Source: a candidate division Zixibacteria bacterium RBG-1
GTDB taxonomy: Bacteria > Zixibacteria > MSB-5A5 > DSPP01 > RBG-1
Assembly (NCBI GenBank): GCA_000447245.1
Contig: AUYT01000001.1
Location: 804,106 to 868,105 of the forward strand
Length of the DNA: 64,000 nucleotides
Direction of reading: 5' to 3'
The position numbers and the translations under genes are program-made. Shown here in pieces: positions 8,851 through 50,245 of the stretch (positions within the stretch are counted from its first letter, which is position 1; each line of letters begins with the position of its first letter). The notes beneath the pieces were generated by a model. The model worked only from the letters and a program-made list of their open reading frames with translations, searched no databases and had not been told where the DNA came from.

Positions 8851-9069
8851 GGTATTATTTTAAGAGTTCCGTCAGGAGCTACTCCTGACGGCTATAACTG
8901 ACCTCACCCTACCCTCTCCTACAGGAGAGGGAGCAAAAATCCCTCCCATTGTAGGGGTTCACCCTGAAGGGAGGGGTCAGGATCACGAAGACACGAAAGC
9001 AACGAAAACAGTGGGTAGCCCAGCGGCTTCTGCCACTGGGTAAATGTGCGATAAATCGCACCGCTACAA
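8851..9069. repeat. composite intergenic palindromic repeat array (CCCTCTCC..GGAGAGGG hairpins plus GTGCGATAAATCGCACCGCTAC unit)
   Basis: Stacked hairpin units (CCGTCAGGAGCTACTCCTGACGG; ACCCTCTCCTACAGGAGAGGG; TCCCTCCCATTGTAGGGG) whose relatives recur at 27346, 32470, 36922, 37367, 41290, 44200, 46238, 48576, 50091. Confidence 0.6.
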
Positions 9070-9076
9070 CTTTAAA

Positions 9077-10450
9077 TTACGGTTTCGTCATCTCAATTTT
9101 CCCCAACCCCTCCAAATCCTTTCTGGTCTCTTTCGGATTGGTCACCACCACAAACACCACATCCTGATAGTCGAAATATTTATTCGCCACCCTTTTAATA
9201 TCATCCAAAGTCACCGCATCTATTTTTTGCATATAAGTATCAACATACTTGGAGTCCAAATTATAAAATTCAATATCGCTAATCTGCGAAGCCAAGGCCT
9301 CCGGTGTTTGAAGCCGGGAGGGAAAAAGCCCTTTCAAATAATTCTTAGCACCAGCCAGTTCATCTGGGCTGACCCCTTTTTCTCTAAACTTTTTCACTTC
9401 CTCTAAAGCCACATCAATAGTCTTTCTGGTAGTTTTATTCTTAGTAAAAGTAGAAATCAGATAAGCGCCGGTTTCTTTGAACATATTGAATCTGGAAGAA
9501 ACTCCATAAGTCAAACCTTGGTTGACTCTGATTTCATTGACTAATCTTGAAGAAAATCCTCCACCTAAAATAGTGTTAGCCACAACCACAGGGAAATAAT
9601 CGGGATTGTTACGAGGCACTGAAATATTCCCAATTCTAATCTGGGTTTGGGTCACGTCTGGTTTTTCCACAATCAGAAGTTTACGCCCTTTGTACTTAGT
9701 TGGAGCAGGAACTTTGTCTAGGCTAGAATTAGATTTTTGCCAATTGGCTAAAGTATTTTCAACTTTCTGTTTTACGCTCTGGGAACTGAAATCGCCTACC
9801 AAAGTTAAAATAGAATACTGGGGCACGAAATATTTTTTGTAAAAATTCATCACATCTTCGCGGGTAATGTTTTTCAAAGAAGTTTCGGTTCCAGAAACCG
9901 GATGTGAGTAAGGATTTTTTTCAAATAAAAATTGATAAAAAGCTTTAGTGGCAATGGTGGAGGGGTCATCTTTTTCTTCCTGTAAACCAGCTAAGGTCAG
10001 CTCTTTTTCCCGCTCAAACTCTTCTTGGGAAAAAACCGAATTGAGCAGAATGTCGGAAAGTAGATTCAAAGCTAAATCAACATCTTTGCTTAAAAATTCT
10101 CCACTGATAAAAGCATAATCGGGACTGGCTCCGCTGTTTAAACTCCCACCTACAAATTCAATTTCCTCTGAAATCTGTTCAAAAGATTTAGTTTTGGTCC
10201 CTTTTCTTATCAAGGTTGCGGTTAAGTCCGCCAAGCCTTCTTTTCCCAGCGGGTCATAGACAGAGCCGGCTTTGAGGACTAATCTAAAGTTTACCAAAGG
10301 GAGTTTCTTATTCTCCATTACCAGCAAAGTCAAATCATTTCCTAAGCTGGATTTTTGATAGGGGGGAAGTTTGATTTCGGATGCTAAAATTAAATTAGAA
10401 AAAACAACCAAGAGTAAAGAAACAATTATGGTAAGCTTAAATATTTTCAT
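9077..10450 (-). CDS. M16 family peptidase, non-catalytic-type subunit (no HxxEH)
   Basis: 457 aa, signal peptide, M16-like but no HxxEH; downstream of the catalytic M16 at 10486..11811. Confidence 0.7.
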   Translation of the reverse strand: MKIFKLTIIVSLLLVVFSNLILASEIKLPPYQKSSLGNDLTLLVMENKKLPLVNFRLVLKAGSVYDPLGKEGLADLTATLIRKGTKTKSFEQISEEIEFVGGSLNSGASPDYAFISGEFLSKDVDLALNLLSDILLNSVFSQEEFEREKELTLAGLQEEKDDPSTIATKAFYQFLFEKNPYSHPVSGTETSLKNITREDVMNFYKKYFVPQYSILTLVGDFSSQSVKQKVENTLANWQKSNSSLDKVPAPTKYKGRKLLIVEKPDVTQTQIRIGNISVPRNNPDYFPVVVANTILGGGFSSRLVNEIRVNQGLTYGVSSRFNMFKETGAYLISTFTKNKTTRKTIDVALEEVKKFREKGVSPDELAGAKNYLKGLFPSRLQTPEALASQISDIEFYNLDSKYVDTYMQKIDAVTLDDIKRVANKYFDYQDVVFVVVTNPKETRKDLEGLGKIEMTKP

Positions 10451-10485
10451 AAAGATTCATCTCCTTATAGTTTAAGGTCCAAATT

Positions 10486-11811
10486 TTAGATTCCAGCTTT
10501 TTCGGGCACTAAGGTTGCCACAGTCCGATTTCTATCAGTAAAATATTTTTGGGCTACTTTTTTTATATCCTCCACAGTGAGGGCTTTGTATTTATCCAAC
10601 ACTTTGTTTAAAAGAGTGTAGTCTCCGAATAAAGTCTGGTAAGTCCCAATCAAATTGGCTCTGCCGTTGTTGGTCTTCATAGATTTTATAAAGTTGGCTT
10701 CCAAAATATTTTTGGCTTTTTGCAGTTCTTTTTCAGTTACTCCAAGATTTTTGACTTTCTCTATTTCGTCATACAAAACCTTTTCCGCCTCGGTGGTATT
10801 AAAATTAGGTTTCATTCCCACATAAATATAAAACAGACCCGGGTCAATGGTGTAAAAGTAAGAAGACCAGACATCCGTAGCCATCTGTTTCTCATAAACC
10901 AAAGTTTTGTATAAGCGGGAGGATTCCCCTTCTGTCAAAATAATTTGCAAAACATCCAGAGCATAGATATCCTCACTCTGCGCACTGGGAATATGGAAGC
11001 CAGCCATAAAAGCTGGCAGTTGAGCTTCTTTGTAATATTGGACTCTTCTTTCCCCTTTTTGCTCTGGTTCGGCATTCACTACTTTAGGAATTGTAGGACC
11101 AGGTTTCAGATGTCCATAATATTTGTCTATTAACTTGAAAGCTTCAGCTGGATTTACATCTCCCACTATAATAATGGTGGCATTTCCTACTGAATAATAA
11201 GTCTTGAAGTAATTAACACAATCTTCGCGAGTGATAGCATCTAAATCCCCCATCCAACCCACCACCGGCCAATGATAAGGGTGGGCTTGAAAGGCAGCCG
11301 CGTATAATTCTTCTTCTAATTTTCCCTCATTGGAGTTGTCGGTCCGTAATCTTCTTTCTTCTTTGACCACTTCTCTTTCAGATGAAAGATTTTCTTCATT
11401 CAAAAGCAGGTTTTCCAGCCGGTCAGCATCTAGATCGATTATCAATTCTAATTTGTTAGAAGGAAAATCTTCAAAATAAGCGGTGAAATCGTTAGCGGTA
11501 TAAGCATTAGATACTCCACCATTGGATTCTAAAATTCTATCAAATTCTTTGGGACCATATCTTTTGGCACCGTTGAACATCATATGTTCAAACAGATGAG
11601 AAATTCCAGTGATGGCCTGTTTTTCGTTGCGGGAGCCGACTTTGAAGAAAGTAAAATAAGTGCAAATCGGCAAAGTATGGTCTTCTAATGTCAGAATCTT
11701 CAATCCATTCGGAAGTTGCTGGGATTTTATGTCTAAATCTAAGGCGAAAGCTAAACTGCTGAAAAATAAAAATGATATTAAGCTGGCGATTACAATTAAA
11801 CGCTTCATCAT
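10486..11811 (-). CDS. M16 family zinc peptidase (catalytic subunit)
   Basis: 441 aa, signal peptide, zinc motif HLFEHMMFNGAK (HxxEH). Confidence 0.8.
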   Translation of the reverse strand: MMKRLIVIASLISFLFFSSLAFALDLDIKSQQLPNGLKILTLEDHTLPICTYFTFFKVGSRNEKQAITGISHLFEHMMFNGAKRYGPKEFDRILESNGGVSNAYTANDFTAYFEDFPSNKLELIIDLDADRLENLLLNEENLSSEREVVKEERRLRTDNSNEGKLEEELYAAAFQAHPYHWPVVGWMGDLDAITREDCVNYFKTYYSVGNATIIIVGDVNPAEAFKLIDKYYGHLKPGPTIPKVVNAEPEQKGERRVQYYKEAQLPAFMAGFHIPSAQSEDIYALDVLQIILTEGESSRLYKTLVYEKQMATDVWSSYFYTIDPGLFYIYVGMKPNFNTTEAEKVLYDEIEKVKNLGVTEKELQKAKNILEANFIKSMKTNNGRANLIGTYQTLFGDYTLLNKVLDKYKALTVEDIKKVAQKYFTDRNRTVATLVPEKAGI

Positions 11812-11826
11812 ATTAACCCTCCTGTT

Positions 11827-20630: not shown

Positions 20631-20720
20631 GTCATCCTGAACCCTTCGGCTGACTCAGGGTAAATGCAGTGAAGGATCTAGAAGGAAAAGATGAGATTCT
20701 TCGCCTACGCTCAGAATGAC
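20631..20720. mobile_element. MITE-like element with imperfect terminal inverted repeats GTCATCCTGAA / CTCAGAATGAC
   Basis: About 90 bp; related copies at 30208-30300 (same orientation) and 33268-33367, 34849-34933 (inverted). Confidence 0.55.
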
Positions 20721-20804: not shown

Positions 20805-21341
20805 TCAGCCGGCTTTAAAGGCGGGGACATAACTTTCACGGGCGAAAATATTGACCGGGGACGAACCGATTCTTTGAGCAATTTCCTGGGATATTTTGTC
20901 TAAATCCTCTTTGGCAAAGCCTTCACAGGTGAACAAAATCTCCTGATTTTTATCAATCAGAAACAAAGTCGGCACGACCGTGATTCCATAGGCATAAGAG
21001 ATTTGATAATTATTCTGGTCCAACAAGAGAGGGAAACTGATTTTGTACTCTCTGGCAAACTGCAGGGTCTCGGCCTGGTTATTCTGCGAAATTCCCCAAA
21101 GGGTGAATCCTTTTCCGGCATAATTTTTATGTAATCTTTCTAAAAAGGGAAAAGTGAACTGGCAGGTGGGGCAGTTGATTTTGAAAAAAGCGATTAAAGT
21201 TAAATCGGTGCTTAGTTTTTCCTTTCCCGACATTGTCGGATCCGCCTTTGGCGGAAAAGAGTAAGTTTTACCATCTGTTCCGCTTAATTTAAAATCCGGG
21301 GCTTTGGTTCCTGTTTCTAAAAGCGCCATTTTCACCTCCAA
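20805..21341 (-). CDS. thioredoxin-fold redoxin (TlpA/AhpC-TSA-like)
   Basis: 178 aa; CxxC motif in FFKINCPTCQF. Confidence 0.65.
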   Translation of the reverse strand: MEVKMALLETGTKAPDFKLSGTDGKTYSFPPKADPTMSGKEKLSTDLTLIAFFKINCPTCQFTFPFLERLHKNYAGKGFTLWGISQNNQAETLQFAREYKISFPLLLDQNNYQISYAYGITVVPTLFLIDKNQEILFTCEGFAKEDLDKISQEIAQRIGSSPVNIFARESYVPAFKAG

Positions 21342-21384
21342 CGTTCAGTCAATATAAAAAATTTGTTATTTGTGTCAACTGTTT

Positions 21385-21440
21385 GGGTCGGGAGACCCAA
21401 ACCTACACACAATATCCGAGTAGGTCAAGGTCTCCTGACC
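21385..21440. repeat. palindromic hairpin repeat (GGGTCAGGAGACCC family)
   Basis: Two arms (GGGTCGGGAGACCCAAACCTAC / GTAGGTCAAGGTCTCCTGACC) forming a long inverted repeat; copies at 25795, 33932, 37241. Confidence 0.6.
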
Positions 21441-21447
21441 TTGACAT

Positions 21448-25690: not shown

Positions 25691-25794
25691 ATCTCTGAAA
25701 GCTACCCTGTAACGTCCCGTTTTACACTTAACAGTATCCCGTAGGGACACGGGACGTACGCCCTATGTAAAATAGGGGGTTACAGATATATTTT

Positions 25795-25850
25795 GGGTCA
25801 GGAGACCCAAATCTACCCAGGAATCCAGGGTAGGTCGAGGTCTCCTGACC
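25795..25850. repeat. palindromic hairpin repeat (GGGTCAGGAGACCC family)
   Basis: GGGTCAGGAGACCCAAATCTACCC...GGGTAGGTCGAGGTCTCCTGACC; a further inverted-repeat region (ACGTCCCG / CGGGACGT) lies at 25700-25790. Confidence 0.6.
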
Positions 25851-25888
25851 TCGACTGAAGCAAAAATGAAATTCCCTGAACTTTCTAC

Positions 25889-27345: not shown

Positions 27346-27433
27346 TCCCTCTCCTTTAAGGAGAGGGTTAGGGAGAGGTCAGTAGTAAAATATAAAAACT
27401 GACCCCTCCTTTATCCTCCCCTCTAGGGGAGGA
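27346..27433. repeat. palindromic repeat unit (CCCTCTCC..GGAGAGGG family)
   Basis: CCCTCTCCTTTAAGGAGAGGG and TCCTCCCCTCTAGGGGAGGAG hairpins between sufC and sufB. Confidence 0.55.
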
Positions 27434-30206: not shown

Positions 30207-30207
30207 T

Positions 30208-30300
30208 GTCATCCTGAATGAAAGTGAAGGATCTGATTTTTTCAAAAGAGAGATTCTTCGCTACAGTTTACCCTGAGCCTGTCGAAGGGCTCAGAATGAC
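30208..30300. mobile_element. MITE-like element (GTCATCCTGAA...CTCAGAATGAC)
   Basis: Begins 2 nt after the sufD stop and ends 11 nt before the Rieske gene start; same family as 20631-20720. Confidence 0.55.
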
Positions 30301-30311
30301 AAATAAAAATT

Positions 30312-30624: not shown

Positions 30625-31884
30625 ATGCTAAACGTTCAAAAAATCAGAGAAGATTTTCCAATATTAAATCAAAAAATTCACGACAAGCCCTTGGCTTATC
30701 TGGACAATGGCTCCACTTCCCAGAAGCCTAAAGTGGTAATTGATGCCATTACTAATTATTACAACTGGTATAATTCCAATATCCATCGGGGGATTCATAC
30801 TTTGAGTGAGAAAGCCACCGAAGCTTACGAAAATGTTAGAAAAATCGTGGCTGATTTTATAAAAGCTCCTGACCCAGAAGAAATAATTTTTACCCGCAAT
30901 GCTACCGAAGCTGTAAATTTGGTAGCTTATGCCTGGGGGAGAAAAAATATTTCTACCGGTGATGAGATTCTTTTAACTGAAATGGAACATCACTCTAATT
31001 TAATCCCCTGGCAGATTTTGGCTAAGGAGAAGAAAGCGGTCTTGCGGTTTATTCCTATCACTCAAAATTTCACTCTGGACTTAGATAAAATTGAAGATTT
31101 GATAACTTCTAAAACCAAGCTGGTAGCTGTGACCCAGATGTCCAATGTTTTGGGAACTATAAATCCGGTTAAAAAAATAGCTGGGTTGGCTCATAAGGCC
31201 AAGGCCTTATTCTTGATAGATGGAGCCCAGGGTGTGCCTCATTCTGGTATCGATGTAGCCAATGTCAACTGTGACTTTTTAGCATTCACTGCTCACAAAA
31301 TGTTAGGACCAACTGGCGTGGGAGTTCTATACGGTAAGAAAAAATTGTTAGAAGAGATGGACCCCTTTATTGCTGGGGGAAGTATGATTTTAGAGGTTTG
31401 GCAAGATCGAGCTACTTGGAACAAAGTCCCTTACAAATATGAAGCCGGAACTCCCAATATTGCAGACGTCATTGCCTTTGGTGAAGCGATAAAATATTTG
31501 CAAAATATCGGCATGGAAAATGTCAGAAACCATGAGAAAGAGTTGACCGCTTACGCTTTGAAAAAACTTTGTGAAACTGAAGACTTAACTATCTATGGTC
31601 CTAAAAATCCGGAACTTCAAGGAGGAATAATCTCTTTTAATTTCTCCGCCAAAGGCGGATCCGACTCTGTCGGAATAGATATACATCCACATGATGTTGG
31701 TACTATCGTGGATCAAGAAGGAGTAGCAATAAGAGCTGGGCATCACTGCTGTCAGCCTTTGATGAGAAAATTAGGGATTCCGGGAACTGCGCGAGCCAGC
31801 TTTTATATTTACAATACTAAAGAAGAAATTGACCAGTTGACTTTTGCTCTGGGAAAAGTCAAAGAGGTGTTTGCACGTTTATAG
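30625..31884 (+). CDS. sufS: cysteine desulfurase SufS
   Basis: 419 aa; PLP-lysine region TAHKMLGPTGVG and active-site Cys region GHHCCQPLMRK. Confidence 0.9.
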   Translation: MLNVQKIREDFPILNQKIHDKPLAYLDNGSTSQKPKVVIDAITNYYNWYNSNIHRGIHTLSEKATEAYENVRKIVADFIKAPDPEEIIFTRNATEAVNLVAYAWGRKNISTGDEILLTEMEHHSNLIPWQILAKEKKAVLRFIPITQNFTLDLDKIEDLITSKTKLVAVTQMSNVLGTINPVKKIAGLAHKAKALFLIDGAQGVPHSGIDVANVNCDFLAFTAHKMLGPTGVGVLYGKKKLLEEMDPFIAGGSMILEVWQDRATWNKVPYKYEAGTPNIADVIAFGEAIKYLQNIGMENVRNHEKELTAYALKKLCETEDLTIYGPKNPELQGGIISFNFSAKGGSDSVGIDIHPHDVGTIVDQEGVAIRAGHHCCQPLMRKLGIPGTARASFYIYNTKEEIDQLTFALGKVKEVFARL

Positions 31885-31989
31885 CACGAATAAATAGTCG
31901 GGTGCAGGGACCCGACTTCTACCCGGCTTTGGGTAGCACTGGGTCCCTGAACCCAGTGCTAAGCTCATATAAAGCGAGTGAAATAAATT

Positions 31990-32454: not shown

Positions 32455-32469
32455 ATATTAAAAGATATT

Positions 32470-32518
32470 TACCTCTCCCCATCCCTCCCCTAAAAGGGGA
32501 GGGTAAGGGAGGGGTTAG
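32470..32518. repeat. palindromic repeat unit (CCCTCCCCTAAAAGGGGAGGG family)
   Basis: TCCCTCCCCTAAAAGGGGAGGGTAAGGGAGGGGTTAGT between sufU and the DUF59 gene. Confidence 0.5.
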
Positions 32519-32534
32519 TTAAGAAGGTGAAATT

Positions 32535-33255: not shown

Positions 33256-33267
33256 CCTCTATTTTTT

Positions 33268-33367
33268 GTCATTCTGAGCCCCGACCCCTACGGGATGGTG
33301 TAACCATAAATCGGGGCGAAGAATCTCATCATTCAAAAAAAAGATCCTTCACTTCGTTCAGGATGAC
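33268..33367. mobile_element. MITE-like element (inverted orientation of the GTCATCCTGAA family)
   Basis: GTCATTCTGAGCCCCGACCCCTACGGGATGGTGTAACCAT...TTCAGGATGAC; first 45 nt identical to the copy at 34849. Confidence 0.6.
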
Positions 33368-33410
33368 CCAATTATCTTTGGAGTGGCAGAGTTAAAATAA
33401 GGGAGGAGAA

Positions 33411-33914: not shown

Positions 33915-33931
33915 CTTGAATGCCAGGCCTT

Positions 33932-33992
33932 GGGTCAGGAGACCCAAGGCTACCCAAGAAATGCATATAGGGTAGGGTCGGGTCTCCTGACC
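33932..33992. repeat. palindromic hairpin repeat (GGGTCAGGAGACCC family)
   Basis: GGGTCAGGAGACCCAAGGCTACCC...GGGTAGGGTCGGGTCTCCTGACC. Confidence 0.6.
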
Positions 33993-34008
33993 TAACCAAA
34001 ATAAAATT

Positions 34009-34833
34009 TTATTTCACCAAAAGATTTTTTTCTTGGTAAATTTCTAATCTTCTATCTTTGAAAATATGATTCTTGGAATTTACCTGTTTAAGGTTGGCTA
34101 ATTTGGGATTAATCTCTGCCACTTGTAGTTCTTCTTTGTCAGCCGAAGCTTGAGCTAAGATATTTCCGTCCGGGTCCACTATCATACTGCGACCGGCAAA
34201 TTTTAATTTTCTTTCCACCCCTACACGGTCACTAGTGACAATAAAAATTCTATTTACAATAGCGTGTCCAGGTAAAGCTCTGAAAGATAATTTCGGGACA
34301 ATTAAATTAGAAGGATGAGCGATAATCTGTGCCCCCTTCAAAGCTAAAATTCTCCAGGCCTCCGGAAATCTCCAGTCAAAACAAACTAAAATTCCCACCT
34401 TGACTCCGTTTATCCTGAAAATCGGCAATCCTAAATTCCCCGGCTCAAATATATCCTTTTCTTTGTAGAATAAATGCAGTTTGCGGTAAGTTCCGATATA
34501 ACCTTTCGGTCCGACCAAAACTGCTGAATTGTAAAGTTTTTTCCCTTTTATGGTGAGTTTTGTCGAACCATCTTTTTCATTTATTCCGGCTACAATGAAA
34601 CATTTTTTCTGCTTGGCCAGAGAAATCAGAAATTGAGAGGATTTGCCGTGTGGTATCTCTTCAGCAAATTTAAAAGCTTCTTTCGTATCTCTGAAATTGT
34701 AACCGGAATTGCAAAGTTCCGGCAAGACTAAAAGGTTTAAATTTTTAATCCGGGAAAGACTTTTTTCAATCTTTTTTAAATTGTAATCTATTTTCCCTAA
34801 TTTAGGGTCGAACTGAAAAAAAGCGACTTTCAT
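34009..34833 (-). CDS. carbon-nitrogen hydrolase family protein (nitrilase superfamily)
   Basis: 274 aa; Glu (VLPELC), Lys and Cys (ILVCFDWRFPE) catalytic-triad contexts. Confidence 0.8.
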   Translation of the reverse strand: MKVAFFQFDPKLGKIDYNLKKIEKSLSRIKNLNLLVLPELCNSGYNFRDTKEAFKFAEEIPHGKSSQFLISLAKQKKCFIVAGINEKDGSTKLTIKGKKLYNSAVLVGPKGYIGTYRKLHLFYKEKDIFEPGNLGLPIFRINGVKVGILVCFDWRFPEAWRILALKGAQIIAHPSNLIVPKLSFRALPGHAIVNRIFIVTSDRVGVERKLKFAGRSMIVDPDGNILAQASADKEELQVAEINPKLANLKQVNSKNHIFKDRRLEIYQEKNLLVK

Positions 34834-34848
34834 CTTCTCATTTTATGT

Positions 34849-34933
34849 GTCATTCTGAGCCCCGACCCCTACGGGATGGTGTAACCATGAATCGAGGTCA
34901 GCATGACTTATATGGCACTTCGTTCAGGATGAC
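34849..34933. mobile_element. MITE-like element (GTCATCCTGAA family, inverted orientation)
   Basis: Direct repeat of the 33268-33367 copy; the two flank the DinB and CN-hydrolase genes. Confidence 0.6.
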
Positions 34934-34944
34934 AAATACAAAAC

Positions 34945-36672: not shown

Positions 36673-36921
36673 AGCGCTCCTTTCATGGTGAGCTTAAGCC
36701 GAACCATGAGTTTTTTTAATATACGAAATTTTCGCGGCAATGCAAGCTCAAGCCATTCACCAAATCCTTTCAAAGTTGGCGATACATCACAAAATTTTGG
36801 TGATTACCAGCTGATACAAATGTGATTTACAAAATCTATTTGTCTGATTAGTTGACTGGTGGAATGTGAAATTGTTTTGGGAGCTTTGAAAAAAGTATAA
36901 CGAGATAAAAAACAAAATCAG

Positions 36922-36968
36922 ACCCTCTTTTCCCTCTCCTCTTAGGGGAGGGTAAGGGTGGGGTAAGT
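36922..36968. repeat. palindromic repeat unit (CCCTCTCC family)
   Basis: CCCTCTTTTCCCTCTCCTCTTAGGGGAGGGTAAGGGTGGGGTAAGT. Confidence 0.5.
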
Positions 36969-36994
36969 TAATCAAAAAAATGAAAACATAAACT

Positions 36995-37306
36995 ATGCCC
37001 AGAAAAATAAGCAAAGTCAGGGGGGAGCACGGCTTAAATTTTTTTATTAGCTACCAGCTGAAAAAAAGGTTACAAACCCTGGCCCAAAAATATGACACTT
37101 CTCTGGCGGAGATTGTCCGGACCCTGCTAAAAATCGGGATACCGGTTCTAGAAGGATATAAGCAAGCTCAAGAGCAGGCGGAGAAAGAGCTTGATAAATT
37201 GACCCATGTCCCTACAGGATTCAGTCGGAAAAAAATCTCTGGGTCAGGAGACCCAGAGCTGCCCCAGGGTAGGGTCAGGTCTCCTGACCTGACCAATGAA
37301 ATTTAA
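36995..37306 (+). CDS. small ribbon-helix-helix-like protein (putative DNA-binding)
   Basis: 103 aa; the segment LKKRLQTLAQKYDTSLAEIVRTLLKIGI resembles CopG/Arc RHH; the C-terminal 20 codons run through a hairpin repeat, so the true stop is uncertain. Confidence 0.35.
   Translation: MPRKISKVRGEHGLNFFISYQLKKRLQTLAQKYDTSLAEIVRTLLKIGIPVLEGYKQAQEQAEKELDKLTHVPTGFSRKKISGSGDPELPQGRVRSPDLTNEI
37241..37290. repeat. palindromic hairpin repeat (GGGTCAGGAGACCC family)
   Basis: GGGTCAGGAGACCCAGAGCTGCCCCAGGGTAGGGTCAGGTCTCCTGACC. Confidence 0.6.
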
Positions 37307-37317: not shown

Positions 37318-37911
37318 ATGAGAAAAATCAAATATCAGAATTGGATTTATGAGGTCATAAACGAGACCTCACCCCGGCCCTCTCCTACAGGAGAGGGAGA
37401 TTTTTCCCCTCCCCTAGTAGGGGAGGGGGATGGTTCGATAAACTCACCACAAAGGGGTGGGGTCAGTGCAGTTGACCCAGAAATTGAGAAACAGGTCAGA
37501 AAAGCTCTCGCCAGATTATCTGAAAAAGAAAAAATCTTTATCGAAGAATTTTACTATCAGGGGAGAAGCTATAAAGAAATTTCTGCGATTTTGAAAATCA
37601 ACCTCAAACAGAGCGAATATCTGCACCGCCGGGCGACATTCAAGCTGAGAAATCTTCTGGCTGGTTTTGTAGAAAGAAAATTCAAGATAAAAGTTGACCG
37701 AGTCAGCCCTGAAAAATCAGTGAAACACCGTAAATCTGTTTTTGCCTGTATCATCTGCCAGAATCCTAAGCAAAAAGAAATTGAGAAAGTTATCAGCTCC
37801 AAAAAAGATTTCCAGACCTGGGGTGTGGTTTTAAAAAAATTAAAAAACGAATTTAAGTTGCATATCAAAGCCCCTCAAATTCTTATAGGGCATATGAAGC
37901 ATAGAAGTTAA
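37318..37911 (+). CDS. sigma-70 region 4-like HTH protein with repeat-encoded N-terminal Pro/Gly-rich linker
   Basis: 197 aa; LARLSEKEKIFIEEFYYQGRSYKEISAILKINLKQSEYLHRRATFKLRNLL resembles sigma-70/ECF region 4; residues 17-45 are encoded by the palindromic repeat at 37367-37462. Confidence 0.4.
   Translation: MRKIKYQNWIYEVINETSPRPSPTGEGDFSPPLVGEGDGSINSPQRGGVSAVDPEIEKQVRKALARLSEKEKIFIEEFYYQGRSYKEISAILKINLKQSEYLHRRATFKLRNLLAGFVERKFKIKVDRVSPEKSVKHRKSVFACIICQNPKQKEIEKVISSKKDFQTWGVVLKKLKNEFKLHIKAPQILIGHMKHRS
37367..37462. repeat. palindromic repeat units (CCCTCTCC..GGAGAGGG, CCCCTCCCCTAGTAGGGGAGGGGG) lying inside ORF 37318..37911
   Basis: Same unit types as the intergenic copies; here in frame within a coding sequence. 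Confidence 0.5.
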
Positions 37912-38026
37912 AAAAGATTAGAGGCCATTTTAGTGGTAGCCGCAGACTTTAGTCTGCGCTTTAAGATTTCGCAACCTAAAGGTTGCGGCTACCAGGTTTT
38001 TTTATTAATCCTTAATCCCTGTTTTA

Positions 38027-39985: not shown

Positions 39986-40327
39986 ACAGGCCTCCTTAAA
40001 GTCTAAGTAAGACTCATGCAGGTTTATTGAAAAGCACGCTCATGACCGTTATAAATATAAGCTAATTTATCCTTTTTGTAAAGGGAGAATTTTGGGTGAA
40101 ATTATGAATTAAAATGCAAGAAAATGCTGATATTTGCTCAAAAAACTTGCTTTTAAAAATCCATGGGGCATCTTTCATCAAGTTATTTTTGAATCGGGTC
40201 AATTTCCAGAGCCGAAGATACGTAGAAAATTAAACAAGAGTTTCGACAGAACCTATCATAAATGGTTCGACTCGTTCCCCCGATGAATCGGGGTCAGAGT
40301 AAACGAAGCTCACTAAAAGGAGGAGCA

Positions 40328-41176
40328 ATGAGAAGTTCGGTGAAGTGGCTGACGGTAATATTGGGCGTTTCTGCTTTTGGTGCGGCGACCGCCTCGGAGA
40401 AGATTTCCTGGAAAAAGATTGACGAGGCCTTAAGCTTAGCCAAAAGCCAGAATAAGAAATTATTAATCGATTTTTATTCCCCCACCTGAGGGGCCTGCAT
40501 AAAAATGGACAAAGAAACTTACTCGGATGACCGGGTGGTGGTTCTGTCCAAAGATTTCATCTTCGTCAAAGTCAACACCAAAGAAGATACCTTAACTAAA
40601 AAGCAATATCAAGTATTCGCCACTCCGACTGCGCTTATGGCCAATGCGGACGGGCAGGAGATAGACCGGGTGGTAGGTTTTCATCCCACCGAACAGTTTT
40701 TACCCATCATCAAAGATTACCAGAAAGGGAAAAATACTTTAGGTGATCTGGAGAAGAAAGCCGGCAAAAATCCCAAAGACGTAAAACTTTTGTACACTTT
40801 GGGGGACAAATATCAATGGCGAGGCGGTAATGAAAAAGCTGTGGAGATGTTTAACAAAGTGGTAGAGTTAGACCCGGAAAATAAATCCGGCAAAGCGGAC
40901 TCTTCGGCTTTTAATCTGGCTTACCTGAAATATCGCCAGAAAGATTATCAGAGTGCCATTGCTGATTTTGAAATGTTCAAGACCGAGTATACCAATCCCA
41001 ATCTGGTGGGTGATGCCCAGATTTACATCGCGGCCTCTTACGAAAAGTCAGATAACAAAGCCGAAGCTCTGAAACAGTACCAGAAATATCTGGAGATGTA
41101 TCCGGAGGGTGAAAACGCCGATTACGCCAAGGAGCAGATTGAAAAACTGACCCAGAAAGCGGAAAAGGCAGAATAA
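40328..41176 (+). CDS. exported thioredoxin-fold (DUF255/Thioredoxin_7-like) + TPR protein with in-frame TGA at the first Cys of the CxxC motif; candidate selenoprotein
   Basis: ATG 40328 preceded by AAAAGGAGG; signal peptide; ORFs 40262..40489 and 40505..41176 are in one frame, separated only by TGA 40487-40489; joined reading ...KKLLIDFYSPT[TGA]GACIKMDKETYSDDRVVVLSKDFIFVKV... aligns with the LLIDFYADWCGxCKxMDKE thioredoxin-like pattern. Confidence 0.5.
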
Positions 41177-41289
41177 GTTTAATTAGATTGCAATATAAAA
41201 ATTCCTGTCGGTGTCTTGTGGTTACACCATAAACTGTCAGGAATTTTTTATAATAAAAATCATTTTATGCCCCGCGTAGGGGTGGTTCA

Positions 41290-41470
41290 TTACGAGTTCG
41301 CCACGAGTGGAGCTTGTCTCCACCCGAGAAAATGGGGGAAGCTAAACTTCCGACCCCAGGTGACTGACCTCACCCCAACCCTCTCCTTAAAGGAGAGGGA
41401 GAAAATTCCCTCCCCTGTAGGGGAGGAAAAAGGAGGGGTTAGTGTTGGGTAGCTCTGGCTTCTGCCACAG
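41290..41470. repeat. composite palindromic repeat array
   Basis: GAGTGGAGCTTGTCTCCACCCG, ACCCTCTCCTTAAAGGAGAGGG, TCCCTCCCCTGTAGGGGAGG units plus GGGTAGCTCTGGCTTCTGCCACAGGG (cf. 9015-9040). Confidence 0.55.
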
Positions 41471-41493
41471 GGAGAAGGCCTCCGAAATTTCCC

Positions 41494-44199: not shown

Positions 44200-44305
44200 T
44201 GTGGAGACCAGCTCCACCCGAAAAATTAACCCCACCTTCACTCTCACCTCTAGGGGATGGATTTTTTGTCCCCTCTCCTGTAGGAGAGGATTAGGGTGAG
44301 GTTAG
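44200..44305. repeat. composite palindromic repeat array
   Basis: GTGGAGACCAGCTCCACCCG and CCCCTCTCCTGTAGGAGAGG units, ending GATTAGGGTGAGGTTAGT. Confidence 0.5.
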
Positions 44306-44319
44306 TATTTCATTCTCTG

Positions 44320-46237: not shown

Positions 46238-46320
46238 GGGTAGCGGTCGGATTTATCCGACTATAGATTTCATGTGCGATGAACCCCTCAGGTTCTTCGG
46301 GACAAGTCGCACCGCTACAA
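46238..46320. repeat. palindromic repeat (GTAGCGGTCGGATTTATCCGAC / GTGCGATGAA...GTCGCACCGCTAC family)
   Basis: Paired hairpin units related to 9046-9069, 48576-48659, 50091-50116. Confidence 0.55.
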
Positions 46321-46377
46321 AAAAAAGAGGGAGGATGAACGAGAAAAATTTTAACCGGTTTTATAGGATTTTTATTT

Positions 46378-46926
46378 TTGCTGACGGTCACTTTGATTTT
46401 GGCGGACCAGAACAAAGATAAAAAGGAACAGGAGGGTATGCTGATGGAAATGCCCAAACCCGGGCCGGAGTTAAAAAGATTGGATTTTTTTGTGGGAAAC
46501 TGGACGGCGGATGTGACTATGTATCCCAACGAATTTATGCCCGGAGGGAAAAGCAAGGGGAAAGAAAGTATGAAATGGGAACTGGACGGAATGTTTATCT
46601 CCATGGATTATCAGGACCAGCCCGGAGAAGAAAAGAAGATGCCGGCTTACAAGGGAAAAGGTTTTATGACTTATGATATGCAAAAGAAGACCTATCGCTC
46701 CTGGTGGATGGATAACTGGGGCTCGGCTTCCGAATCCGTGGGAGGCTGGCCAGATGACAAGACCCTGGTCTTAAGCCACCAAGGAGAATTCATGGGGAAG
46801 AAATTCCATGAAAAATTTGTGTACCAGATTTTGGACCAAAATAAGTTTCATTTCCAGATTGAGCACTCTCCGGACGGGAAAGAGTTTAAAAAAGTGATGG
46901 AAGCCACTTATACCAGGGAAAAATAA
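46378..46926 (+). CDS. DUF1579-like protein
   Basis: 182 aa; segment LDFFVGNWTADVTMYP...MKWELDGMFISMDYQD resembles the DUF1579 family; start uncertain (an upstream ATG with hydrophobic leader lies in another frame). Confidence 0.45.
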   Translation: MLTVTLILADQNKDKKEQEGMLMEMPKPGPELKRLDFFVGNWTADVTMYPNEFMPGGKSKGKESMKWELDGMFISMDYQDQPGEEKKMPAYKGKGFMTYDMQKKTYRSWWMDNWGSASESVGGWPDDKTLVLSHQGEFMGKKFHEKFVYQILDQNKFHFQIEHSPDGKEFKKVMEATYTREK

Positions 46927-47173
46927 GCTGTGTAAGGATAGTTTCAAAAAGGAGTTTTTATTTTAAAACCTGTTGTCAAAAACATACTTATCACTTACAA
47001 GTTCTCAATTTTGGCATTGATTTTGCTCATTTTCGTATCTGTGGCTTACCTAGTCAAAATCCAGGCAGGAGAAGAACCTTCTAAGAGTCAAGCCCAGCAG
47101 GGTGGATTTCCCAACCTAGTAGGTGGTTTAAAAGCAACTTAAGAGAAAAAATCATGCCCCCAAAAAACGGATA

Positions 47174-47656
47174 ATGATTCAGAGATATTTATACCAAGCC
47201 AAGCCGGAAAAAGTTTTCAAAGCTTTGACTGATGCCAAAGAGCTGACCAAATGGTTTTTAAAAGAGGCTCAGGTGCAGCTCAAGAAGGGGGGAAAGATGA
47301 GGTTTGTCTGGAGCCCCAAGGATAAGCACGAAAATAAGATTCTGGACTTAGTTCCCAATAAACGCTTAAGAATGACCTGGCCCACCATGGGCTGGGGAGG
47401 CACTCCTAAGACCGATACTTATGTCACCTTCAGTCTGACTCCTAAGGGAAAATCTACTCTTTTGCAGATAGAGCACACTGGTTTCGGACCCGGTGAGGAA
47501 TGGGTAATGTATTATGCCGGTACCTATTCGGGCTGGACTTATTATCTATTGAATTTGAAATCCTGGCTGGAGCACGGAATTGATTTGAGAGACAAAATAT
47601 CTGAAACTGTCATAACTGAAAACGATTCTGAAAAATCTAGGAAAGGGAAAAGATAG
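47174..47656 (+). CDS. SRPBCC-superfamily protein (AHSA1/START-like)
   Basis: 160 aa; pattern PEKVFKALTDAKELTKWF...TFSLTPKGKSTLLQIEHTGF typical of activator-of-Hsp90-ATPase-homologue-like proteins. Confidence 0.6.
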   Translation: MIQRYLYQAKPEKVFKALTDAKELTKWFLKEAQVQLKKGGKMRFVWSPKDKHENKILDLVPNKRLRMTWPTMGWGGTPKTDTYVTFSLTPKGKSTLLQIEHTGFGPGEEWVMYYAGTYSGWTYYLLNLKSWLEHGIDLRDKISETVITENDSEKSRKGKR

Positions 47657-47681
47657 TTTTTAAGATATCTTAAAAATTTAC

Positions 47682-48470
47682 ATGCGAAGATTTGGTTTAC
47701 ATCTGCTCCTCGGTTTCTTCCTGCTGATTTTTACAGCGGTTCAGCTTCAGGCCGGAAGACCCTTTGAGACGGAAGTTTCTGAAATTCATAATAATCAGAG
47801 GATTAAGTTCGATTTGGGGATAGATTATTCCCACATTGCTTCCCGGCAGGATTTGCTGGCTTTACCCTGGATAGGGATAAATTTTTCCACCGGTCAAATA
47901 GTGGAAATCCAGGCCTATTACGATTTTTTCTACCGCTTCACCAAGAGAGCTACCACAGTTTACGGCTCCGGGGATTTATCTTTGTGGACCAAATTAAGAT
48001 TCGTGGAAGAAAAAGGGAGTCGTCCAGCCGTCGGGTTACGCTTCGGTGTCAAACTTCCCAATGCCAAAGATGAGGTGGGATTGGGAACCGACCAGACCAA
48101 TTTCTACGCCGCTGGCTTAATCGGGAAAACCTGGAGAAAACTGGAGAATCATCTGAACTTAGGAATCGCCATCTACGACAGCCCCTTCCGGGTCAGGGAG
48201 CAAAAGGATTTGTTTACCTTAGCGTATTCTTCCATTTACAATTTTTCCCCTACCCTGCAGTTCGTTTTTGATTTCTACACCCAGCAAGGGGCCGACCTTC
48301 GCTTTAATCTGAATAAACTTACTCTGGGAAGCAGAATCGCGCATAAAAAATGGGTCTGGGAATTGGCTTTGAAAAAGGGAATCAACTCCATCAACAAAGG
48401 ATATCAGGGGGAACAATCCTTAGACTGGGGCTTAGTTTTATCCGCCAGCCGTTATTTTGATTTGAAGTAG
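47682..48470 (+). CDS. hypothetical outer-membrane beta-barrel protein
   Basis: 262 aa; signal peptide; alternating amphipathic beta-strand pattern; C-terminal aromatic-rich strand. Confidence 0.4.
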   Translation: MRRFGLHLLLGFFLLIFTAVQLQAGRPFETEVSEIHNNQRIKFDLGIDYSHIASRQDLLALPWIGINFSTGQIVEIQAYYDFFYRFTKRATTVYGSGDLSLWTKLRFVEEKGSRPAVGLRFGVKLPNAKDEVGLGTDQTNFYAAGLIGKTWRKLENHLNLGIAIYDSPFRVREQKDLFTLAYSSIYNFSPTLQFVFDFYTQQGADLRFNLNKLTLGSRIAHKKWVWELALKKGINSINKGYQGEQSLDWGLVLSASRYFDLK

Positions 48471-48497
48471 AGTTTATCACAACACACATCTTTGTAG

Positions 48498-48528
48498 GCG
48501 GGGATCTTTTCCCCGCTTTTTTTGTTTT
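48498..48528 (+). terminator. rho-independent terminator
   Basis: GCGGGGATCTTTTCCCCGC hairpin followed by TTTTTTTGTTTTG, 28 nt after the stop of gene 47682..48470. Confidence 0.6.
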
Positions 48529-48575
48529 GTCGGGAAGAGCTCGCGACCTACGAAATTGCAAGATTTGGCGATTCT

Positions 48576-48659
48576 GTAGCGGTGCGATTCATCGCACCTT
48601 AGCTGATATTTGGTTAAATCAAAGTAACCTTTTCAGGTCGGATAAATCCGACCGCTACA
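48576..48659. repeat. palindromic repeat (GTAGCGGTGCGATTCATCGCAC ... GTCGGATAAATCCGACCGCTAC)
   Basis: Same family as 46238-46320 with the units in swapped order. Confidence 0.55.
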
Positions 48660-48776
48660 TTATGTAACTATATTTGTCATAAAAAATGAAGATTAACAAA
48701 CAGGGGGGGGTAATATCCGTAAAAAGAGTAGTTAGCTGTTCTATAAAAATGCAATAAATGGGATAACATCAAGGAT

Positions 48777-48911
48777 AGTCAATAATACTCAACAATAGTA
48801 TTATTATTGACTATAGTTGAGTATTGAGGAGGTGAGGGACTAAATAGTTTAACTTCTAAATTTAAGGAAAATTAGTTAGTAGTCAAGCATATTACTATTG
48901 TTGACCATTAA
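48777..48911. promoter_or_regulatory. AT-rich interlocking inverted repeats (TAGTCAATAAT / ATTATTGACTA; CAACAATAGT) plus TATTGTTGACCAT motif; candidate operator region
   Basis: Palindromic block 48777-48830 and the motif TATTGTTGACCAT at 48895-48908 (also at 6264-6276), about 45 bp upstream of the HMA lipoprotein gene. Confidence 0.4.
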
Positions 48912-48955
48912 ATTCAAAGCGTTGAATTAGAAATTAACCTTAAAGGAGGGATTCA

Positions 48956-50017
48956 ATGAAGAGTTTCAAGGTATTGCTTTTAGCCGCCATTTTTTTGTGT
49001 AGTATGGTATTAATCGCAGCTGCCTGCGAAAAATCCTCTCAGACTTCCACCGCCCAAGCCCAATGTGACCACCAAGTTTGCAGCAAAAAAACGGCCTTGA
49101 GCAGTTCAGATAAAGAGCATAATTGTTGTGCCTCTAAAGTAAAGTCCGCTTCCTCGCATTGTGAGGGAGTTAAAGAGAGTAACTTAAATTTGAAAGCCGG
49201 AACCTGTGAAGGGAAGTTTGATGGCTCACAGACCTCAGCCCAGAATTTGTCAACCAAAGCGGATAAATGCTGTCTTAAATCCAGCTTAGCCAATGTGGAA
49301 ACCTTAGAGCCGGCCCAAAAAGCTACTTCCAACAAAGAAGAAGCCGTTACCCAGAAGGCGGTCTTAAATGTTTCCGGGATGACCTGCGGCGGTTGCGCTT
49401 CGGAAGTGAAGTCGGCTTTGACCAAAGTGAATGGGGTTAAAGAGTGTAAAGTGAGCTGGAAAGAAGGGAAAGCGGAGGTGGGATTCACAGGTGATCCAGC
49501 TAAAGCCAATGAGTTAGTAAAAGCAGTAAACAAGACCGGTTTCAAAGCCAGTTTAGCCAGTGTGGAAAGTATCACAGCGATGGAAGATGATGAGGACGAT
49601 GCCTATGACGCCGAAGATGCTGATGATTCTGATGATGGCGAAGATGCAGATGCCAAGCAGATGGTGGTCAAAGAGAAAGAGACTTTCAAAGCTACCAGTT
49701 ACGTGTGTGAAGATTGTGGTTACAGACAAGCCAAAGGTGGAAAATGTCCCAGCGGTAACTGCAAGTTAACCAAAGTTACCGAGAAACACACTTTTGTGTG
49801 TGAAGAATGTGATTATGCCCAAGCCAAAGCCGGTGTCTGTCCGAGTCATAAAACTTCTTTGGTCGAATACTCAGTCAAATATGAATGTCCGGCCTGCCAC
49901 ATGGTTTACGAGACTGCGGGAGTCTGCTCCATGTGCAAAAAGCAGTTGCAGATGGTAACCGACGAACCGATTGCGACTGGTAAAAAGATGATGAGCAAAG
50001 AGAAAGCCACTTATTAA
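48956..50017 (+). CDS. Cys-rich heavy-metal-binding lipoprotein with HMA domain and three C-terminal Cx2C...Cx3-4C modules
   Basis: 353 aa; lipobox LIAAAC; HMA motif VSGMTCGGCAS; acidic linker EDDEDDAYDAEDADDSDDGEDAD; repeats YVCEDCGY..GKCPSGNC, FVCEECDY..GVCPSH, YECPACHM..GVCSMC. Confidence 0.7.
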   Translation: MKSFKVLLLAAIFLCSMVLIAAACEKSSQTSTAQAQCDHQVCSKKTALSSSDKEHNCCASKVKSASSHCEGVKESNLNLKAGTCEGKFDGSQTSAQNLSTKADKCCLKSSLANVETLEPAQKATSNKEEAVTQKAVLNVSGMTCGGCASEVKSALTKVNGVKECKVSWKEGKAEVGFTGDPAKANELVKAVNKTGFKASLASVESITAMEDDEDDAYDAEDADDSDDGEDADAKQMVVKEKETFKATSYVCEDCGYRQAKGGKCPSGNCKLTKVTEKHTFVCEECDYAQAKAGVCPSHKTSLVEYSVKYECPACHMVYETAGVCSMCKKQLQMVTDEPIATGKKMMSKEKATY

Positions 50018-50051
50018 TTTTTTCCGAGACAATTAATGCAGTAATTCTGAA

Positions 50052-50090
50052 GGGTGTCGTTTGATAAAAAAAACGACACCCCTTTAGTTT
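50052..50090 (+). terminator. rho-independent terminator
   Basis: 11-bp stem GGGTGTCGTTT/AAACGACACCC with 8-nt loop, followed by CTTTAGTTT. Confidence 0.55.
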
Positions 50091-50245
50091 GTAGCGGTGA
50101 GATTTATCGCACATCGTTAATCTAAACCCACTGGCTTCCACCATTGGGAAATTTAAATGCTGTGAATCGCGTTTAACTAACCCCTCCCTACCCCTCTCGA
50201 TTACACTCGAGGGAAACCTCCCCTAAAAGGAGAGGGAACTCAAAA
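50091..50245. repeat. composite palindromic repeat array
   Basis: GTAGCGGTGAGATTTATCGCAC unit, CCACTGGCTTCCACCATTGGG, and CCCTCTC..GAGGG / CCCCTAAAAGGAGAGGG units. Confidence 0.5.

Follow-up and report, generated by a model that had tools for sequence, protein, structure and literature searches.

Small palindromic repeats are densely scattered through a 64-kb stretch (64,000 nucleotides) of the closed genome (2.12 Mb) of the candidate division Zixibacteria bacterium RBG-1; we refer to this stretch, the part of the genome that was analyzed, as the window. We consider it probable (roughly 0.7) that the repeat sites represent clustered members of several independent families of tiny noncoding mobile hairpins of the kind known as repetitive extragenic palindromes (REPs), REP doublets forming hairpins (REPINs), and bacterial interspersed mosaic elements (BIMEs), with the GTAG-tagged families spreading by way of REP-associated tyrosine transposases (RAYTs). 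The repeats fall into distinct families whose units form hairpins, are patchily present at orthologous positions in relatives, nest within one another, and occur in frame inside genes.

A first-pass annotation of the sequence had described ten intergenic sites as mosaics of the same few hairpin units, similar in logic to enterobacterial BIMEs but different in sequence. Its motifs are present at all ten sites, and all ten are intergenic except 37367-37462, which lies in frame within the open reading frame (ORF) 37318-37911. Rather than the same few units throughout, the sites hold at least eight separate families, which are co-located, independently inserted, and not one modular system. Two supposed mosaics (46238-46320 and 48576-48659) are GTAGCGGT doublets only, with no CCCTCTCC units, and the reported pairing of GTAGCGGT with GGGTAGC units holds at two of the three places named; at 41440-41470, the GGGTAGC...CTTCTGCCAC unit stands alone, with no GTAGCGGT unit. 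The BIME-like logic with different sequences was borne out by GTAG-tagged hairpins in six families, inverted doublets, mixed clusters, and the GTAGCGGT type flanking a RAYT-like gene elsewhere. Sites missing from that annotation were 20631-20720, 21380-21446, 25791-25856, 30207-30302, 31895-31959, 33266-33368, 33927-33999, 34848-34935, 37238-37296, 37936-37992, 40255-40335, and 48494-48555, together with intragenic copies at 21226-21255, 31645-31674, and ~34540-34563.

The similarity among sites outlasts formal alignment and shuffle tests and is not a low-complexity G/C coincidence. All-against-all blastn-short comparison of the intergenic DNA of the window gave 53 pairs at E ≤ 0.01, including 27346-27383 with 41400-41363 (94.7% identity over 38 nt, E 9e-13), 9044-9069 with 50114-50089 (96% over 26 nt), and 46240-46261 with 48658-48637 (100% over 22 nt). 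The 22-mer GTAGCGGTGCGATTTATCGCAC had three matches in the window at three or fewer mismatches, compared with none in 100 shuffles; the arm motif GGGWGRGGTYAG had 14 matches at one mismatch or fewer, compared with 1.75 ± 1.18 expected; and GTAG followed by a hairpin occurred 20 times, compared with 6.4 ± 2.5 in shuffles. Between 8.8 and 50.3 kb, at least one family member was present in 19 of the 27 spacers of 80 nt or longer, and the annotated elements total ~2.1 kb. Both orientations are represented among the copies, as are convergent, divergent, and tandem gene contexts, and most copies lie between same-strand genes inside operons such as suf.

Two independent Logan contigs (L001 and L002) match the window at 100% identity over 12.7 kb and 7.6 kb, repeats included, and the RBG-1 genome, assembled from Rifle aquifer sediment, was later verified with synthetic long reads (PMC4381525); the repeats are therefore not assembly artefacts. 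Both contigs stop at window position 33294, within a repeat at 33266-33368 (family H, below), and such repeats therefore fragment short-read metagenome assemblies. Six proteins encoded in the window are the same, residue for residue, as RBG-1 proteins in GenBank (EQB63156-EQB63176) from a 2.12-Mb contig. Near-identical strains were represented by L209 (99.7% identity) and L210 (identical over the 808 nt aligned).

Repeat families of the window

Six families carry a GTAG tag. We named them T, T2, S, G, R, and the GTAGGGGTGGAG type, with heads GTAGCGGT, GTAGCYC, GTAGCCGC, GTAGGKTC, GTAGGCGGGG, and GTAGGGGTGGAG, respectively; every one begins with GTAG, and most occur as inverted doublets. Each unit consists of an unpaired GTAG, a stem of 6-10 bp, and a loop of 4-6 nt. 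The doublets (at 21380, 25791, 31895, 33927, 37936, 46240, 48494, and 48576) span 57-84 nt, with orientation alternating inside each. The window holds about 20 GTAG hairpins in all, six of which are T units, and 16 of the 20 are intergenic. When folded as single-stranded DNA and compared with shuffles, the T, S, and G doublets gave z-scores of -4.1 to -7.4 and the R doublet -3.4.

The T unit has the form GTAG-CG-[GTNNNA-TTYA-TNNNAC]. Single T REPs (GTAGCGGTGCGATTTATCGCAC in the first case) lie at 9046-9067 on the minus strand and at 50091-50112 on the plus strand. Both T doublets are REPIN-like, each joining one GCGA-stem unit to one CGGA-stem unit with the GTAG ends outside: that at 46240-46320 (z -4.1) has a 27-nt insertion in the loop of its right REP, and that at 48576-48659 (z -5.5) is 84 nt long. 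The T2 REPs are GTAGCCCAGCGGC-TTCT-GCCACTGGG at 9015-9040 and GGTAGCTCTGGC-TTCT-GCCACAGGG at 41448-41472, both on the plus strand, and a T2-like hairpin lacking the GTAG tag, CCACTGGC-TTCC-ACCATTGG, occupies 50128-50150. Family S is represented by an inverted doublet of GTAGCCGCAGAC-TTTA-GTCTGCG REPs at 37936-37992, GTAG outside (z -6.3).

Family G (heads GTAGGKTC… / GTAGMTTTGGGTC…) has its GTAG ends facing inward. Its inverted doublets are at 21380-21446 (…CCCAAACCTAC … GTAGGTCAAGGTCTCCTGACCTTGAC), 25791-25856 (z -7.4), and 33927-33999; a fourth G element, at 37238-37296, forms the 3' end of ORF 36995-37306, and a variant, G-like doublet (GTAGAAGTCGGGTCCCTGCACCCGAC / GTAGCACTGGGTCCCTGAACCCAGTGC) fills the sufS-sufU spacer at 31895-31959, where relatives have H elements. 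The R doublet, GTAGGCGGGGATCTTTTCCCCGC … GTCGGGAAGAGCTCGCGACCTAC (R head GTAGGCGGGGA…), is at 48494-48555, and a run of T follows its left hairpin (48496-48518), which looks like a terminator. The GTAGGGGTGGAG type is degenerate in the window, surviving as a GTAGGGG-type doublet at 41270-41360 (GTAGGGGTGG…GTGGAGCTTGTCTCCACCC, then GGGGGAAGCTAAACTTCCGACCCC), intact in loci L124 and L128 of relatives, and as a plus-strand GTGGAGACCAGCTCCACCCGAA hairpin at 44200-44222, the body of such a REP with the tag missing.

Family P is REP-like in architecture only. Its unit is a C-rich tail of 12-13 nt (ACTRACCYCWCCC) joined to an 8-bp polypyrimidine/polypurine hairpin (CCCTCTCC/GGAGAGGG), with no GTAG or CGTC tag. 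Thirteen P units fit one consensus, AACTRACCYCWCCC-TWA-CCCTCYCC-loop-GGRGAGGG; an RNAalifold consensus of their alignment was uninformative, with 4- and 5-nt loops misaligned. The elements are branched palindromes of 50-107 nt, and their single-strand DNA folds gave z-scores from -0.6 to -5.1.

P units were found in five arrangements. In the first, a unit and its mirror image are fused around one hairpin, as at 32468-32520 (both arms present, z -3.5) and 36920-36969, 26 nt upstream of ORF 36995. The second is the tail-outside doublet, its units separated by an A/T-rich spacer and all three examples on the plus strand: 8897-8981 (outer arms ACTGACCTCACCC / GGGAGGGGTCAG, inner hairpin CCCTCTCC-TACA-GGAGAGGG, and a second, interrupted hairpin; z -2.4), 41363-41444 (two hairpins, both arms), and 44224-44306 (two hairpins, left half degenerate), which ends 14 nt before a promoter-like TTGACA-17-TATACT. 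The third is a tail-outside doublet with two hairpins at 37362-37468 (plus strand, z -4.8), in frame within the sigma-70-region-4-like ORF 37318-37911 and with a 27-nt unit (GATGGTTCGATAAACTCACCACAAAGG) nested at 37429-37455. A tail-inside doublet between sufC and sufB (27346-27433, z -5.1) is the fourth, with two units head to head as hairpin and arm, a 14-nt spacer, and arm and hairpin. The fifth, at 50171-50238 on the plus strand, is incomplete, with a left arm and two hairpins but no right arm. In addition, a P sub-type with an TCCGCCAGAGGCGGA hairpin between its two stems has three copies in the relative's locus L128, and this recurrence shows that composites, too, are copied.

P-like units were also found in a few loci of other phyla and in viral contigs. 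Seven near-identical IMG/VR contigs (L212, L215, L216, and L218-L221) carry one P-type unit each, CCCTCCC-TTATCA-GGGGAGGG-CT-AGGGAGGGGTCAG, and other single P-type units occur in L213, L214, and L222. With T nearly absent from viral contigs (one match) and P units few and single, these matches give no clear support to phage as a vector.

Family H comprises palindromes of ~90-105 nt (GTCATTCTGAG) with GTCATYCTGA termini. The copy at 20631-20720 (~90 nt) has inner arms GAAGRATCT, that at 30207-30302 lies between sufD and the Rieske gene, that at 33266-33368 contains a nested CCCCGA…TCGGGG hairpin, and that at 34848-34935 has 98% identity to 33267-33313 over 47 nt. Set against miniature inverted-repeat transposable elements, P and H carry inverted terminal arms, with no target-site duplication visible between filled and empty sites and no parent insertion sequence found.

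Still smaller modules of 15-27 nt sit inside the loops and spacers of the larger elements. Hairpins of 15 nt with the form TCCGMC-NNN-GKCGGA had five matches, compared with 0.23 expected, and a unit of 24-27 nt, GATGGTTCGA-N-CTCACCAYAAA, occurs at 134, 34540, 36683, 37429, 40255, and 55095. Two 15-nt mini-hairpins (CCCGACATTGTCGGA and TCCGCCTTTGGCGGA) lie at 21226-21255 inside the AhpC/redoxin-like ORF 20805-21341 as an inverted copy of a pair in sufS; this is probably another in-frame intragenic insertion. At 40255-40335 on the plus strand, a ATGGTTCGA…CTCAC unit, inside which a CCCCGATGAATCGGGG hairpin is nested, overlaps both the start codon (40328) and the ribosome-binding site of a thioredoxin-like gene; the spacer before this gene is shorter in L126 and L122, both of which lack the unit. 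A perfect 10-bp hairpin at 8868-8890, CCGTCAGGAG-CTA-CTCCTGACGG, recurs beside P and GTAGCGGT units in another Zixibacteria locus (L050).

Turnover in relatives and copies within genes

Five syntenic Zixibacteria loci (L122, L124, L126, L127, and L128; ~85 kb in all) keep the gene order of window positions 27-48 kb. Amino acid identity to these relatives is 75-98% for most genes and 55-74% for the sigma-like ORF. Their orthologous spacers hold unrelated repeat families, or none, from one relative to the next. In the sufD-Rieske spacer, the window and L128 have H, L127 has a two-hairpin P, and L122 has GTAG REPs. The Rieske-sufS spacer is 4 nt with no element in the window and 97-99 nt in relatives, where it holds an R doublet (L122 and L128) or a G doublet (L127). 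Following sufU (32468-32520), the one-hairpin P of the window is matched in L127 by the same P with a second hairpin and an H, and in L122 and L124 by an R (GTAGGCGGGG) doublet. The T doublet between nadE and the DUF1579 gene (46240-46320) corresponds to no element in L122 and L128. The P element at 36920-36969 is shared, at the same site, by L124 and L127; L122, L126, and L128 lack it.

In-frame insertions in three genes, sufS, a CN-hydrolase gene, and the sigma-like gene, are each missing from at least two of the relatives. In sufS, which is probably essential, a 30-nt insertion on the plus strand (31645-31674) consists of the mini-hairpins TCCGCCAAAGGCGGA and TCCGACTCTGTCGGA, encodes the peptide SAKGGSDSVG, and is absent in three orthologues. 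The insertion in the CN-hydrolase gene (34009-34833) is 24 nt long (GATGGTTCGACAAAACTCACCATA, 34540-34563, minus strand, peptide DGSTKLTI), is common to L124, and is absent in L122, L127, and L128. Orthologues of the sigma-like gene form a graded series: a 174-amino-acid form whose linker is unrelated, a form with a single P unit (SPGPSPTGEG), a form with both arms and one hairpin (a stage known at the protein level, P0005), a form with two hairpins, and finally, in RBG-1, two hairpins with the nested 27-nt unit (DGSINSPQR).

Repeats also alter gene ends. The C-terminus of the ribbon-helix-helix-like ORF 36995-37306 differs in every relative (76-116 amino acids), and a G, H, or P element overlaps the 3' end; since each genome has a different repeat at this position, repeats evidently remodel gene ends.

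Side observations were also made. The thioredoxin-like gene behind the 40255-40335 unit (40328-41176) encodes a thioredoxin-fold/tetratricopeptide-repeat protein with a signal peptide and is a probable selenoprotein gene, judging by an in-frame TGA (40487-40489) that is read through at the first position of the redox motif (…DFYSPT-TGA-GAC…). L122, L126, and L128 keep both this codon and its surroundings, and ~20 nt downstream of it lies a stable hairpin; ORF callers cut the gene into ORFs of 53-55 and 223 amino acids. An A/T-rich, operator-looking palindrome (TAGTCAATAATG…TATTGTTGACCAT) occurs at 6228-6279, 48776-48825, and 48880-48911. In L128, a copy of it in the spacer that follows the sigma-like gene separates the tail of a P unit from its hairpin. 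Lastly, ORF 53173-54720 contains degenerate internal tandem repeats with a period of ~54-87 nt, Gly-rich and GxGVxG-like, which are unrelated to the palindromes (families D1, D5, and D10).

The transposase link and competing explanations

In genomes other than RBG-1, a RAYT-like gene goes with the GTAGCGGT type and its relatives. A scan for GTAGCGGTSSGATNNATCSSAC across one representative genome per species matched at least 119 stretches, compared with a chance expectation of ~17 in the whole collection, assuming uniform base composition. Among the matches listed, metagenome-assembled genomes (MAGs) labelled with more than 12 phyla contained the GTAGCGGT repeat (Omnitrophota, Zixibacteria, WOR-3, Ratteibacteria, Sumerlaeota, Desantisbacteria, Stahlbacteria, Edwardsbacteria, Elusimicrobia, Planctomycetota, Cloacimonadota, Ignavibacteria, Aerophobetes, Clostridia, and others), and many had several matches, some on contigs longer than 200 kb. 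Stems were complementary in all 143 matches listed, with partner copies adding the variants TTGA, GGCA, GTGA, and CGCA. In the sampled loci, the variable stem of GTAGCGGT-headed sites was perfectly paired in 175 of 230, in 11 stem versions, compared with 53 when 3' arms were shuffled; GTAG[CT]GGT heads there were distributed as 78 in GTAG-outside dimers, 16 GTAG-inside, 21 tandem, and 114 single.

One scanned locus, L024, has the REPtron layout, in which the RAYT gene lies between REPs of its own family. Its 149-amino-acid Y1_Tnp gene (5026-5475) lies between inverted GTAGCGGTGGCATTTATGCCAC copies with GTAG ends outward and extra copies nearby. The protein passed Pfam Y1_Tnp (PF01797, E 9e-9), its best NCBIfam match was REP_Tyr_transpos (55.6 bits, compared with 29.9 for IS200), and many of its 110 homologues are named RayT by JGI. 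We retrieved 80 metagenome loci encoding such homologues. Among the 15 most similar, nearly all have GTAG-NNNN-stem-TTTA-stem REPs on their flanks, which are related GTAG repeats that share the GATTTATC loop (for example, GTAGTTGCCCGATTTATCGGGC, GTAGGGGTTCGATTTATCGAACCC, and GTAGTCAGCCGATTTATCGGCT), and one of the 15 has GTAGCCGCAGAGC REPs like the S type of the window. Further RAYT loci are flanked by GTAGCCGCAGAGC or GTAGGGGC types, which resemble the S and GTAGGGG families of the window, and an S-like REP adjoins the RAYT gene in L141. GTAG-containing inverted flanks were present in at least 28 of 79 RAYT loci. In some MAGs, GTAG REPs are also packed closely together, in tandem or alternating. 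Four GTAGCGGTGCGATTTATCGCAC-type units, one of them with one mismatch, repeat every 30 nt in L004 (Ratteibacteria; 293-404), and in L130 nine GTAGTTGC units surround a RAYT gene and apparently also lie within it (1375-2066).

Together, these patterns suggest a mechanism in which a GTAG unit would fold as a hairpin on single-stranded DNA, and a Y1 (HUH) transposase of RAYT type would recognize hairpin and tag and cut and rejoin the DNA in trans; we infer that such a RAYT would act in RBG-1 itself. New copies would survive chiefly in noncoding DNA, beside or inside older hairpins, giving mixed BIME-like mosaics, and copies with a length divisible by three may persist in tolerant protein loops. 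Where they are transcribed within operons, the hairpins may incidentally stabilize or terminate mRNAs, and such side effects on transcripts are plausible from position and structure.

Several results weigh against this interpretation. No Y1 transposase was found in the window, in the ~85 kb of syntenic loci, or in the T-scan loci other than L024, L117, and L061, using as queries a RAYT sequence and the L024 and L117 proteins. The exact GTAGCGGT head flanks one RAYT gene only, that of L024, and the scores of the L024 (55.6 bits) and L117 (70.1 bits) proteins fall below the curated NF047646 cut-off of 80 bits; NF047646 is still the top family for both, ahead of IS200. P, G, and R repeats were absent near RAYT homologues in the 80 loci. 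No target-site duplications were seen where filled and empty sites could be compared, and the near-identical strains L209 and L210 showed no insertion differences, so the changes seen are between species rather than recent. Part of the P copies fold no better than composition-matched shuffles (z -0.6 to -2.0), because shuffles with the same purine/pyrimidine bias also fold well.

Other transposase contexts differ from that of L024. The Y1 genes of L117 and L061 lie 1.4-4.5 kb from a T copy and are not T-flanked; in L117, an Omnitrophota MAG, the 228-amino-acid transposase (1298-1984) is instead flanked by 20-nt inverted repeats (GTTATGTAAAGCGTCTTCTT), not GTAG REPs, with the repeat duplicated in tandem on one side in a 'TIRYT'-like arrangement. 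An attempt to link P with the TIRYT class did not succeed; the P arm GGGGTCAG nonetheless fits the terminal inverted repeat motif GGGGWSAS reported beside some tyrosine transposases, which is a lead only. For H, the 80 RAYT loci gave one terminus match only (L136).

If the hairpins were instead immobile cis-regulatory RNA structures (mRNA stabilizers, attenuators, terminators, or promoter-proximal elements) held by host selection, one would expect what is seen in part: most copies lie between same-strand genes within operons such as suf, stem variants are compensatory, a T run follows the R hairpin at 48496-48518, and the P clusters at 41363-41472 and 44224-44306 end just 5' of strong promoter-like sites conserved in relatives. 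Such a role fits poorly with orthologous spacers that hold unrelated families, or none, in close relatives with conserved gene order, and with copies in both orientations, in every gene context, and in frame within three genes. Most copies also lack a T run, and the same 22-nt unit stands beside unrelated genes in MAGs of many phyla; we therefore regard this explanation as improbable. We hold an account of P and the mini-hairpins as products of local growth (replication template switching or hairpin-primed synthesis, and quasi-palindrome correction, with no transposition) to be equally doubtful. The sigma-like series, from arm and hairpin to both arms to two hairpins, does resemble a palindrome made symmetrical stepwise, arms and inner stems are alike in polypyrimidine/polypurine sequence, and P has neither a target-site duplication nor a transposase partner. 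Unlinked P units, however, share specific sequence well beyond composition (27346 and 41363, for example, agree at 95% over 38 nt), the composite with the nested TCCGCCAGAGGCGGA hairpin occurs three times in L128, and units of hairpin plus tail turn up again in unrelated viral contigs; the three together favor a copied master sequence over separate local origins.

Somewhat less doubtful, but still unlikely, is that P and the mini-hairpins (TCCGCC-NNN-GGCGGA and GATGGTTCGA…CTCACCA) form a separate, new class of ultra-small mobile modules, built stepwise into composites by an enzyme or by template switching, with the whalefall-1 'RNA' possibly a member. They have no GTAG or CGTC tags and no RAYT partner, and they insert in repeat loops and in frame in genes, including sufS. 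That P elements are small structured RNA genes related to Rfam whalefall-1 seems very unlikely. A weak match at 41366-41429 (23 bits) shares the first hairpin CUCUCC/GGAGAG and the 3' tail GGGUGAGG, but it is under the gathering threshold of 37, only one of the eight or nine P sites matches (E ≤ 0.5), the second hairpin differs, and P copies vary in unit number, occur in both orientations, and lie in coding sequence; it is more likely that whalefall-1 is itself a repeat of the P kind. Coincidence of G/C-rich low-complexity sequence, or assembly artefact, has a negligible chance of being correct: P units are compositionally simple and some fold no better than shuffles, but the shuffle controls, E-values, identical independent assemblies, and long-read validation all speak against it, as does the presence of the same units in relatives and other phyla. 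Mobile hairpin families of the REP kind remain our preferred explanation.

Several established element types were considered for the repeats and rejected. As CRISPR arrays, they would be evenly spaced, identical direct repeats separated by spacers that are each unique, which they are not; copies are kilobases apart, in both orientations, and irregularly spaced. As integron attC sites, the P arms (ACTGACC/GGTCAGT or ACTAACC/GGTTAGT) do not match the R''/R' cores RYYYAAC … GTTRRRY, and the neighbors are housekeeping operons (suf and nadE) with conserved synteny. Intrinsic terminators were rejected because a T run is lacking after most elements; besides the R hairpin, a loose scan flags a small number of the inner hairpins of P and G. 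In the window, Rfam at gathering thresholds detected tRNAs and nothing else, and at permissive E-values it returned sub-threshold whalefall-1, VrrA, and microRNA precursor matches, which are generic hairpins.

Comparison with known repeat systems

Our results extend REP/REPIN-type selfish DNA to Zixibacteria, for which no published account of these repeats was found among the papers searched. GTAG REPs have been described as tagged palindromes that form dimers, joined head to head or tail to tail, and clusters of mixed type, that make up REPtrons, and that have some copies inside genes (Di Nocera, De Gregorio and Rocco 2013, PMC3733652). The tagged families here share with them the unpaired GTAG, a short-looped stem (~6-13 bp as published), sub-families with complementary stem changes, and several families per genome, as well as occurrence as singles, dimers with GTAG out or in, and mixed clusters. 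Also shared are a location mostly between same-strand or convergent genes, occasional intragenic copies, and the flanking of RAYT genes. Unlike the GTAG REPs of that survey, these have other sequences and come from a candidate phylum outside it, and in the GTAGCGGT type the stem top and loop, GATTYATC, are conserved and recur in REPs headed GTAGTTGC and GTAGGGGT. P, H, and the mini-hairpins lack the GTAG tag of REPs altogether.

REPIN-RAYT systems have been described as vertically inherited and lineage-specific, with a single-copy RAYT (Bertels and Rainey; PMC5581495, PMC8049555). The doublets resemble REPINs in having two inverted REPs 20-60 nt apart that are able to form one long hairpin, and in the association with a Y1 RAYT (T in L024). 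They differ in that singles are commoner than doublets (114 single compared with 39 GTAG-outside pairs in the sampled loci) and in that the GTAGCGGT unit is common to MAGs of many phyla. One REP superfamily with the conserved GATTYATC loop, and a matching RAYT clade, are common to many uncultured phyla, a distribution that fits awkwardly with purely vertical REPIN-RAYT inheritance and offers a test case for horizontal spread. The alternating REP orientation of the Escherichia coli BIME is seen in the doublets here; E. coli BIMEs are further defined by conserved motifs between the REPs to which integration host factor, gyrase, or DNA polymerase I binds.

Beyond classification, the repeats are of interest because they are so dense, and turn over so strongly, in a genome of 2.1 Mb, as are an orphan palindrome family and mini-hairpins that nest in repeats and enter genes in frame. 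The sigma-like series and the varying spacer occupants provide a data set on the growth of composite palindromes. In addition, the repeats create spurious or altered ORF ends, with peptides such as SPRPSPTGEG and DGSINSPQR, and their recognition aids MAG annotation.

The P family belongs neither to BOX nor to whalefall-1. BOX elements of Streptococcus pneumoniae, like other modular MITE-like repeats, have conserved end modules around a variable number of internal hairpin modules, are intergenic, and are co-transcribed with their neighbors. The modular logic of P is similar, but the sequences are unrelated, the P ends are inverted copies of each other, and the P unit also occurs alone. Whalefall-1 (RF01762) looks like a two-hairpin P read on the reverse strand in its first hairpin, CUCUCC-loop-GGAGAG, and its 3' tail, GGGUGAGG, but not in its second hairpin. 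For the mini-hairpins, the closest parallels are the small repeats of cyanobacteria, reportedly treated by Elhai and colleagues in 2008, and the Rickettsia palindromic elements. Both are very small palindromes (~20-30 nt or larger) that insert in repeats and in frame in genes. Compared with these, the mini-hairpins of the window have other sequences and hosts, and measure 15 nt each when in pairs, or 24-27 nt.

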